A DNA stretch of 64,000 nt from the IMG/VR virus record IMGVR_UViG_3300038468_000190, positions 32,001 to 96,000 of that record; one strand, written 5' to 3'. The DNA comes from a virus. The notes under the pieces are model-generated. The model was not told the origin of the DNA. It searched no databases and saw nothing but the letters and a program-made list of their open reading frames with translations. Of this stretch, positions 61,901 to 63,774 are shown one piece after another (the stretch's first letter is position 1; every line of letters starts with the position of its first letter). The position numbers were made by a program, and so were the translations under genes.

Positions 61901-63774
61901 CCGTCCCCTCGGAGCCGAGTGACTCCGAGGCTTTGCGGTGCGGTTTGCGAGCGGTGCAGATCGTCGGCTCTGCACTCGGCCGTAACTCGTGGAAGTTGTT
62001 CGTCGTCGGCTCTCGCGTCGCTGGACCTCTCGAATGGGCTAGGGTGATCGATAGCATTCGGCCCCGAAGGGCCATCCGGTTGGTTCGCGGCGCCGGTAAT
62101 GGCTCCGTTCCCCGTTCCACGCTTGTGGCGTGTCCGGTTCCGAGGGCGATCCGGCGGCGTGGAGGCCGAAGCCTCCTCCGCCGTGGTTCCGGTTCCACTC
62201 GGCATTGTCCGAAGGGCGGAGCCCTCCGGGTTTCCCCCGGCGAGTCCCGCCGGAGTTACTGGTGCGCCCGAAGGCGACCTGTAGTCTCGAAGATTCTTGG
62301 CGCTGTTCACTTCGCGGTCCTCGGTGTGGCCGCACGCGGGGCAGTGGAAATCCGGGTAGCCCGGATCCGTGTCCCTGACGTTACCGCACACCGAGCAGCG
62401 CCGCGAGCTCGCGAATTCTTTCTCCGCGAACTCCGTCGTGCCGCCGGCCCATCCCTGCTTGTATTCGATGCGCCGGCGGATGTCGCCCATGCGGGCAAAC
62501 TGCACCCAGCCCGAGACGCGCTTTCGCGTCTGCTCGCCCGCCTCGGTTTTGCCGGCACGGGCCTTCATGTCCGCCACGAACGCGTCCCTCATGACGAGCG
62601 TCCCGGCGCCCGTGTCGACGACGGCGCGCGCGGCGCGGCCGGCAATGTAATCGCGGAGCTCGGTCGCGCGGCGCGAGTAGAGCGCCGCCTGAGCCTTGGC
62701 CCGGCGCCAGCCGTTCGACTGGATGCGGTCTTTGCGCGGAGTGGTCTTCGGGTAGGCCTTGTGCCGGCGCGCCATGCGCCGCTGCCAGAGCGCGATCTTC
62801 CGCTCGTAGGCCGCGAGGCGCTTCTCTTCTCGGATGCCGACGATGTCCACCTCGCCGCCGCTCGTCACGACGAGATGCCGGACGCCGACCTCGACGCCGA
62901 CGCGCTTGTCCGTCCGCGTCACGGGTCGCTCCCGGAGGGCTCTGCCGGCTCCACGGGGCCCAGGACTCGGCCGCGGCACAGTCCCCCTGAGCGAGACGTA
63001 CCAGCGCCCGCCCCATTCGCGAAGGCCGACGGCGGAGCACTGCCCGCCCCCTATGAACCGATGCGAACCCTCCTCGGTCGACGGAAGATAGCCGCGCTCC
63101 TTGAGCTTCACCCAGCCGACGCCTGGGATCTTGATCGCCCGCTCCGTCACGCGAAGCGCGCTCGGCTGGTCGGCGTGCCAGCGGCGGTTATCGCCGGACC
63201 GAAAGCGGGGCTCTCCGAGTTCGCAGCCGGGCGCTCCGCGGCGAGCGTCACACTCGGAGTGATCGCCGCGCGCGTGCTTCTTCAGCCGGCGCCAGAAGTG
63301 CTTGTAGGCATTGCCGACGTCGGCGGCCGCTTCCCGAACGGCGAAGGCACTCACCTCCGTCAGCCAGCGGAGCTCGGCCGAAGCGTGCTTAACCGCCGTG
63401 AGCTCCTTGTGCAGGGCATCGGCGTTCGGCATGGACTCGGGCTCCGCGTACGGGAGCCTCACCTGAAACTTCCAGAGCGTCCGTGGCGCCGCGCCGCGCT
63501 TGGCGCGCTTGGCCAGGCGCTCCGCGGGCTCTCCGAAGACGAGGGCGTGAAGGCCGAGCCCGAGCCACCACGCGGCGAGCCCGGTAGCGTGATCGAAGCC
63601 GGCAAGGGCCCGAAGGCCGCTAGCGACAGAGTAGATGCCGTACTCGGCGCGCCAGCGCTCGAGAGTCCAGTTGTACGCCACGCGTGCCGCTGCGATGTGC
63701 CGCGCGAGCAGGCGCCGTTGCTCGACAGTGGGGTCGAGCTCGGTGCGGTAGGCGCGATCGATCATGTCGGTCAT
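61882..63774 (-). CDS. CRISPR-associated TnpB-derived (type V-like) effector, predicted nuclease-dead
   Basis: RAYRTELDPTVEQRRLL...ARVAYNWTL N-terminus, PRFRS, IKIPGVGWVKL, WYVS, CSVC/CPAC zinc finger; RuvC motifs VGVEVG, LVMRD, DREVNSAKNL. Confidence 0.9.
   Translation of the reverse strand: MTDMIDRAYRTELDPTVEQRRLLARHIAAARVAYNWTLERWRAEYGIYSVASGLRALAGFDHATGLAAWWLGLGLHALVFGEPAERLAKRAKRGAAPRTLWKFQVRLPYAEPESMPNADALHKELTAVKHASAELRWLTEVSAFAVREAAADVGNAYKHFWRRLKKHARGDHSECDARRGAPGCELGEPRFRSGDNRRWHADQPSALRVTERAIKIPGVGWVKLKERGYLPSTEEGSHRFIGGGQCSAVGLREWGGRWYVSLRGTVPRPSPGPRGAGRALRERPVTRTDKRVGVEVGVRHLVVTSGGEVDIVGIREEKRLAAYERKIALWQRRMARRHKAYPKTTPRKDRIQSNGWRRAKAQAALYSRRATELRDYIAGRAARAVVDTGAGTLVMRDAFVADMKARAGKTEAGEQTRKRVSGWVQFARMGDIRRRIEYKQGWAGGTTEFAEKEFASSRRCSVCGNVRDTDPGYPDFHCPACGHTEDREVNSAKNLRDYRSPSGAPVTPAGLAGGNPEGSALRTMPSGTGTTAEEASASTPPDRPRNRTRHKRGTGNGAITGAANQPDGPSGPNAIDHPSPFERSSDARADDEQLPRVTAECRADDLHRSQTAPQSLGVTRLRGDGSEGLR
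61901..62280 (-). ncRNA. Candidate structured RNA (omegaRNA/tracr-like scaffold or leader) overlapping the effector ORF tail
   Basis: Seven hairpins, three closed by C(UUCG)G on the minus strand. Confidence 0.6.

Follow-up and report, generated by a model that had tools for sequence, protein, structure and literature searches.

A phage-borne TnpB-like effector gene whose 3' end probably encodes both a tracrRNA-like scaffold and a CRISPR leader

Introduction

Cas12n, the type V-U4 effector, works with a trans-activating CRISPR RNA, or tracrRNA, that overlaps the open reading frame (ORF) of the effector, and the protein tail is disordered and dispensable (PMC12216341; PMC11641405; PMC12721324; bioRxiv 10.64898/2026.03.27.714800). 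A similar layout is found in a stretch of viral DNA of 64,000 nt (positions 32,001 to 96,000 of IMG/VR record IMGVR_UViG_3300038468_000190), hereafter called the window, whose numbering is used throughout. On the minus strand of this window a TnpB-like effector gene runs directly into a CRISPR array, and the present text deals with the last part of that gene (62290-61901, minus strand). We consider it quite likely that this part has a triple role, namely as a tracrRNA-like scaffold, as the leader of the CRISPR array and as a read-through segment of the effector ORF. The elements of the locus are as follows.

61882-63801, minus strand: effector ORF of 639 aa when started at GTG (also recorded in a 630-aa form), with a TnpB-like, V-U4-like core up to about residue 510 and then a tail of ~130 aa
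62065-62286, minus strand: tracrRNA-like 5' module with helices A (62261-62279), B (62235-62255), C (62209-62229), D (62161-62176) and G (62060-62073), plus helix F
62028-62064, minus strand: anti-repeat, complementary to repeat positions 1-35 apart from a few mismatches and wobbles (RNAduplex -40.4 kcal/mol)
61976-62027, minus strand: segment between anti-repeat and leader core, with helix H, which is well formed in most relatives
61954-61975, minus strand: helix I, a hairpin adjoining the leader motif, with AGCCGACGA as its conserved loop
61933-61954, minus strand: leader motif CCGCTCGCAAA-N7-GCAA, which begins exactly 54 nt ahead of repeat 1 and is more conserved than any other motif here
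61901-61932, minus strand: leader-proximal segment with hairpin J (61907-61930), lineage-variable in sequence
60820-61900, minus strand: CRISPR array, 15 repeats of 36 nt; the end at 60.8 kb is degenerate (trailer), and each spacer borders on the repeat 3' end ...GTCAG

The effector shares with Cas12n that it is a miniature, TnpB-derived protein which adjoins an array and is not accompanied by cas1, cas2 or cas4. It also shares a seemingly disordered tail that begins ~10 residues past the last RuvC residue and whose DNA would encode the tracrRNA. Several features differ. In sequence and fold the protein resembles IS605 TnpB at least as much as it does RdCas12n, the scaffold is longer (~260 nt versus 170 nt), the anti-repeat spans the whole 36-nt repeat and the ORF additionally crosses a leader of 128 nt and stops in repeat 1. 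Moreover, the intact RuvC D-E-D triad of Cas12n is not found here (Glu at RuvC-I; the Glu of RuvC-II is not conserved), and the element is phage-borne.

A second point of comparison is the omegaRNA/reRNA of TnpB from IS200/IS605 elements (e.g. ISDra2). Here as there, scaffold and nuclease gene share a strand and overlap at the 3' end of the gene, and the C-terminal region is disordered; TnpB also provides the closest matches among solved structures and NCBIfam models. In contrast to TnpB, an array of 15 repeats and a separate anti-repeat replace the single covalent guide, and the core is ~100 aa larger. Neither transposon ends nor TnpA were seen. With 15 repeats following the gene, the locus does not qualify as a TnpB/OMEGA element. 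TranC (Jin et al. 2025, LaTranC) resembles the present locus as a TnpB lineage that independently gained an array, with an omegaRNA split into tracrRNA and CRISPR RNA (crRNA). A preprint (10.64898/2026.03.27.714800) reports that a Cas12n-like unstructured tail was absent from its TranC clades, and LaTranC is a weaker match to our protein.

The similarity searches point in the same directions. The best PADLOC model is Cas12u4 (V-U4 = Cas12n; 151 bits, 1e-44, residues 8-548), narrowly above a Cas12f model (138 bits) and the NCBIfam match, guided_TnpB (139 bits). A profile search of PDB chains returned TnpB at 3e-37 to 3e-44, RdCas12n (9J09) at 2.6e-27, LaTranC at 2.4e-14 and Cas12f at 1e-5 to 1e-8. 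TnpBs also rank first in Foldseek. These comparisons would place the effector family, which is divergent and phage-borne, within V-U4 or next to it. An earlier, sequence-only reading of this DNA had suggested a snapshot of the transition from TnpB to Cas12. We do not follow it, because Cas12n/V-U4 has been published with this very layout, i.e. an ORF-embedded tracrRNA and a dispensable tail, and V-U4 is the best defence-library match of the protein; the layout is therefore already known.

Structure and covariation of the putative scaffold RNA

The secondary structure of the region was evaluated in silico on both strands. The RNA of the minus strand (389 nt) folds with -177.5 kcal/mol, compared to -156.3 +/- 6.3 kcal/mol for dinucleotide shuffles (z -3.37; 0 of 100 shuffles as good). 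For the plus strand of the same region z is -1.43, with 9 of 100 shuffles as good. All seven stems that the sequence-only reading had listed were recovered on the minus (gene-sense) strand, where they correspond to helices J (61907-61930), I (61954-61975), G (62060-62073), D (62161-62176), C (62209-62229), B (62237-62253) and A (62265-62276). The three C-UUCG-G loops which it had assigned to that strand are likewise present and close helices A, D and G.

Gene 3' ends and the DNA downstream of them were gathered from ~20 homologous loci. A MAFFT alignment of 12 lineages was folded using RNAalifold, and base pairs were counted in comparison with shuffled and slid-partner controls. The consensus contains 40 pairs in the 5' module, among them those of two long-range helices enclosing a domain with several branches. 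Helix D with its UUCG loop sits inside these two closing helices, and the module also has a lineage-variable insert. 92.2% of the cells in the 5' module are paired, versus 74.7% in the shuffled alignments and 32-46% with slid partners. Compensatory change on both sides of the helix is seen in 29 of the 40 pairs (13.2 +/- 2.4 when shuffled; 0 of 500 shuffles as high). The covariation expected of a structured RNA, which the earlier reading had left to be checked, is thus found well beyond chance.

The same picture emerges from single hairpin segments, which in 16 lineages fold into the same hairpins from differing sequences. Compared with the 80%-identical relative L001, a swap of the loop from UUCG to GCAA and a flip from C-G to G-C are directly visible. 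Among the paired cells G-U (40) outnumbers A-C (19), favouring the gene strand.

At the level of codons the tail region has lost the signature of the core. The GC content at third codon positions (GC3) drops from 0.86 in the core to 0.66 in the tail at about residue 505, and in the tail it equals the values at positions one and two (GC1 and GC2). Substitutions relative to L001 at codon positions 1/2/3 number 70/47/178 in the core and 21/17/21 in the tail, and the tail diverges less than the core (14.7% versus 20%). AlphaFold2, run with 29 sequences, assigns a pLDDT (predicted local distance difference test) of ~30 to residues 512-639, so the tail peptide looks disordered in this model. Judged by its pattern of substitution, the DNA stretch is evolving as an RNA and not as a protein.

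Anti-repeat and CRISPR array

The repeats decay at the 60.8-kb end of the array. This marks the 61.9-kb end as that of the leader, so that gene and array are both read on the minus strand. On this strand the scaffold forms a near-full-length duplex with the repeat of its own locus, with RNAduplex energies of -33 to -50 kcal/mol across loci. In 8 of 12 loci the anti-repeat falls within one shared block of the alignment, directly behind helix G, and in 3 others it overlaps that block. RNAalifold recovers the anti-repeat:repeat interaction as a long-range helix with 80.5% of the cells paired, versus 64.6% when shuffled and 28-49% when slid. Moreover, anti-repeat and repeat change together: 33 cells show a double change, compared to 12.0 +/- 2.8 in shuffled data (0 of 500 as high). 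In the manner of a tracrRNA, the co-varying anti-repeat is therefore located on the strand able to pair with the crRNA, the polarity of the array being given by the degenerate distal repeats and by the position of the leader.

Three of the repeats (60998-61033, 61289-61324 and 61360-61395) are variants with an alternative 5' half (CTCGCAAGGGCTCC...). By hand count, the AGCCC of the anti-repeat matches the GGGCU of these variants perfectly, and both repeat types are paired about equally overall (15-16 of 19 positions).

Two further contacts were considered and rejected. The loop of helix I (GACGA) can pair with the repeat 3' end (UCGUC) in some loci and fails to do so in L056, L011 and L012. 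A pseudoknot of the last bases of the repeat (GUCAG) with the 5' scaffold has no consistent partner.

A leader shared with other arrays

Within the effector family, from the CGAG of the anti-repeat to the GCAA of the leader motif, 105 nt are kept without indel in 14 lineages. Viral contigs were scanned for the exact pattern of the motif, which gave 78 matches, mostly due to chance. In 10 viral loci (seven different arrays, the window apart), however, an array follows 54/55 nt from the motif. The neighbours of these arrays vary: a 1020-aa Cas9 in one case (L072), V-U1 (Cas12m-like) proteins in four (L083, L097, L107/L135 and L079/L120), a protein of no known type (L104) and a member of the effector family of the window (L077).

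In 401 Myxococcota genomes the motif shows no overall enrichment, with 6 exact matches versus ~14 for the reversed control. One of the six (genome G154) is located 54 nt before an array and directly after a Cas4-Cas1 fusion (best model Cas1g, 2e-183). This bacterial, type I-G-like leader resembles the phage leader in the motif itself, the preceding hairpin, the 54-nt distance and the orientation to the array. In contrast, the repeats show no sequence relationship, the phage copy is embedded in an ORF and the phage is without cas1, cas2 or cas4 of its own. The phage leader may derive from a host-type source, for which we regard the Myxococcota locus as a candidate.

When all these leaders are aligned, a common core emerges; a hairpin abuts it in the effector family, namely helix I, and likewise in the bacterial leader. 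As in a CRISPR leader, the motif keeps a fixed distance to the array whichever effector is present (Cas9, V-U1, V-U4-like or unknown), and it also occurs beside an adaptation module. Since Cas9, V-U1 and bacterial Cas4-Cas1 arrays have it in common at the same spacing, the element belongs to the array and not to the guide RNA of the effector. The omegaRNA-like scaffold put forward by the sequence-only reading has to be cut back accordingly. A structured, gene-sense RNA over the tail and directly before the array stands, but the array-proximal 75-125 nt with two of the seven hairpins are leader. The motif loosely resembles a degenerate "repeat 0" or a boxA-like antiterminator, readings that we considered and do not claim.

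Two of the loci may be described individually. The 309-kb viral (jumbo-phage) contig L072 carries Cas9, the leader motif and, at 54 nt, an array of 12 unrelated 36-nt repeats (4247-7309 and 7361-8593). In the Myxococcota locus (L143; G154:C19:26000-45000) a WYL regulator is followed by Cas4-Cas1, the motif (at 9108) and, at +54, an array of 37-nt repeats.

Proposed function and alternative explanations

Our preferred reading assigns separate functions to the two parts of the region. The segment 62028-62286 (~260 nt) would be a tracrRNA-like scaffold with at least seven helices and, after them, an anti-repeat of full length. It would be provided by the effector mRNA or by a transcript starting inside it. 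The anti-repeat would pair with the 36-nt repeat of each pre-crRNA, and the resulting repeat:anti-repeat duplex of ~30 bp could plausibly be cut by host RNase III. The V-U4-like, TnpB-derived effector would then be loaded with scaffold and repeat-spacer as a dual guide, the scaffold being placed on the guide-proximal side of the duplex as in the guides of TnpB (omegaRNA), Cas12f and Cas12n. This complex may cut DNA or, given the degenerate RuvC site, only bind it.

The segment 61901-61975, possibly up to 62027, would represent the array leader, consisting of the conserved hairpin and CCGCTCGCAAA-N7-GCAA at its fixed distance from repeat 1. It may drive or service the array. As the phage is without cas1, the leader is most likely used by host machinery, be it the host adaptation complex, host transcription factors or both. 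The effector ORF reads through both segments to the TGA of the first repeat, which adds the tail, predicted to be disordered, to the protein.

For this uncharacterised phage-borne family of TnpB-like proteins the reading offers a testable guide RNA design, made of the scaffold (62028-62286), the anti-repeat (62028-62064) and the 36-nt repeat. It also separates the guide RNA from the array leader, which matters for the mining of loci, given that two of the seven "scaffold" hairpins are leader. Beyond this family, virus-borne arrays of three effector types (II, V-U1 and V-U4-like) share a leader with bacterial Cas4-Cas1. This supports the view that phage arrays without cas1 rely on the adaptation machinery of the host.

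A number of points weigh against this reading. We infer from sequence comparison that the scaffold RNA exists, where it ends, that it is expressed, bound by the effector and processed, and that the leader functions as such. A scan of 60500-64000 with Rfam gave no family at E <= 1, and a scan for sigma-70-like promoters and terminators found none. Helix H is degenerate in the lineage of the window itself. Helices H and I are outside the formal pair count, as their register shifts by 1 nt between lineages in a block of constant length. The leader core motif served as the search pattern, so that independent evidence comes only from the fixed array spacing and the flanks. Finally, frame 0 is free of stops across the scaffold in 11 lineages, whereas the +1 and +2 frames carry 27 and 34 stops. 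A purely RNA and leader based reading predicts neither this stop-free frame nor the restart of the ORF in the relative L017, which keeps the RNA-relative frame of the family (...DRSQP...).

The last two points lead to the alternative that survives best, in which the tail or its translation is functional, for instance as a disordered region with RNA-binding or regulatory properties, or through ribosomes that travel as far as the first repeat and so couple synthesis of the effector to expression of the tracrRNA or array, or shield the long stretch that would otherwise be untranslated from Rho termination. It is compatible with a role of the RNA, and we see a real if minor chance that it applies. 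Apart from the stop-free frame it draws on the in-frame stop, for which at least ten lineages with tails of 351 to 441 nt use one and the same TGA of the repeat, and on the optional helix E, a whole hairpin whose indel measures 21 nt and is thus divisible by three. The ATGA restart in L017 and the in-frame fusion of an HNH gene in L009 fit as well. On the other hand, the tail shows neither a third-position bias nor a GC3 signal, its peptide motifs show conservation only at places where the RNA does, AlphaFold2 sees no structure in it and one relative (L020) reads the region in another frame.

The two loci with rearranged ORFs have the following layout. In L017 (4348-4704; likewise in L018) the effector ORF ends in an enlarged helix C, where an ATGA overlap opens a second ORF, at least 119 aa long, that covers the remainder of the scaffold. 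In L009 (5082-6374) the effector stops at 5413, and between it and the scaffold lies an inserted ORF for an HNH endonuclease, which continues in frame with the usual tail as far as the array.

Mere read-through does not account for the tail, since selection keeps its frame open. Its sequence is set by the RNA, yet an open frame is selected. Such a frame maintained over an RNA gene may extend to Cas12n and TnpB. Tentatively, and with rather low confidence, we suggest that translation through scaffold and leader is under selection, with either the ribosome or the disordered tail being functional, and that the phage array grows via a host I-G-type Cas4/1-Cas2 and a borrowed leader. As a speculation, translation up to the first repeat might couple synthesis of the effector to release of the tracrRNA, or might shield the promoter-distal array from Rho termination.

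Less is left of the idea that the whole 380 nt are one retained omegaRNA-like scaffold abutting the array, with GACGAAC (61998-62004) contacting the repeat 3' end, which we now regard as unlikely. In minimum-energy folds of the scaffold plus repeat 1, the anti-repeat does pair with repeat 1 in cis and encloses H, I and J, giving a single-guide, omegaRNA-like shape in 6 of 6 loci; the spacing between anti-repeat and repeat 1 is constant as well, as the indel-free block shows. However, the proposed GACGAAC anti-repeat matches over 7 bp only and turns out to be the 5' arm of helix H. The equivalent arm of the relatives pairs in cis as part of a hairpin and does not track the repeat. Moreover, the array-proximal module is independent of the effector, being common, at the same 54-nt spacing, to Cas9 arrays, to a bacterial Cas4-Cas1 array and to arrays next to proteins whose best match is the V-U1 (Cas12m) profile. 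Cas12m is reported to function without a tracrRNA.

A system relying on crRNA only, with the anti-repeat as a fossil inverted copy of the repeat and the hairpins incidental to GC-rich sequence, could point to the 3' hairpin of the repeat itself (UGACG...CGUCA) beside the spacer, as in tracrRNA-free type V, but is very improbable given that the anti-repeat changes with the repeat across 11 lineages of very different repeats, that compensatory changes in the upstream helices are far above the shuffled and slid controls, and that the nucleotides of the tail region are more conserved than the coding core.

Effector family and phage context

The effector contains the domains HTH_OrfB_IS605, OrfB_IS605 and a Cas12f1-like TNB. 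Its ORF extends ~130 aa beyond the last RuvC motif to the TGA at 61882-61884, within repeat 1. In the RuvC site (window 62587-62589 and 62890-62892), RuvC-I reads GVEVG in most family members, with Glu replacing Asp. The acidic position of RuvC-II is Asp here, Gly in the 80%-identical relative, Gly, Ala or Pro in about half of the family and Glu in some relatives. The Asp of RuvC-III is retained, and wherever a member has Asp at RuvC-I, its RuvC-II position is Gly. The catalytic site of the family looks degenerate from these residues, and the family may bind DNA without cutting it.

The family is small, with ~23 representative clusters below 1e-30, beyond which ordinary TnpBs of 400 aa follow. 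In nearly all of the ~20 loci the array begins 335-445 nt past the last RuvC motif. An array is present in 13 of 13 scaffold-bearing loci with sufficient downstream DNA, and 5 further contigs stop at or before the first repeat. A DNA profile of the tail stretch matches every array-bearing locus of the family and matches once in the genome of the window. It has no match downstream of the array-less relatives L015 and L016. A scan of genome contigs with the protein alignment yielded no family members, only distant TnpBs (21-58% identity over short best segments, best E 2e-31), and tblastn of the phages collection returned only distant IS605 transposases with < 28% identity.

The two array-less relatives belong to the closer ones, with BLASTP identities of 52% (L015) and 46% (L016). 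They measure 490 and 496 aa and terminate ~10-20 residues past RuvC-III. Neither scaffold nor array is seen downstream of them, in 4 kb checked for L015 and in the ~0.3 kb up to the contig end for L016. In L056 a second, partial copy of the scaffold 5' module (6121-6323; profile positions 20-217, E 6.5e-40) is located ~0.6 kb past the end of the array.

The whole record is a complete virus genome of 140 kb (IMG/VR, CheckV 100%), in which Cas1 was not found. Besides the effector the window encodes a collagen-like tail-fibre gene and many ORFs without known family. The related loci are embedded among phage-type genes, namely Thy1, DnaB, PolA, UDG and methyltransferases.

Two spacers of the array match the genome of the phage itself:

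61106-61141: spacer 11, matching the collagen-like tail-fibre gene at 38472-38507 (35 of 36 nt; mismatch at spacer position 7)
61469-61504: spacer 6, matching 21449-21484 (33 of 36 nt; mismatches at positions 2, 4 and 7)

The 5' flanks of these imperfect matches end in ...GGG and ...CCG. They are probably escaped sites and hence uninformative on the protospacer adjacent motif (5'-AAN in Cas12n). The mismatches lie in the repeat-proximal (seed) part of the spacers, which fits guides directed against sibling phages with the own genome escaping.

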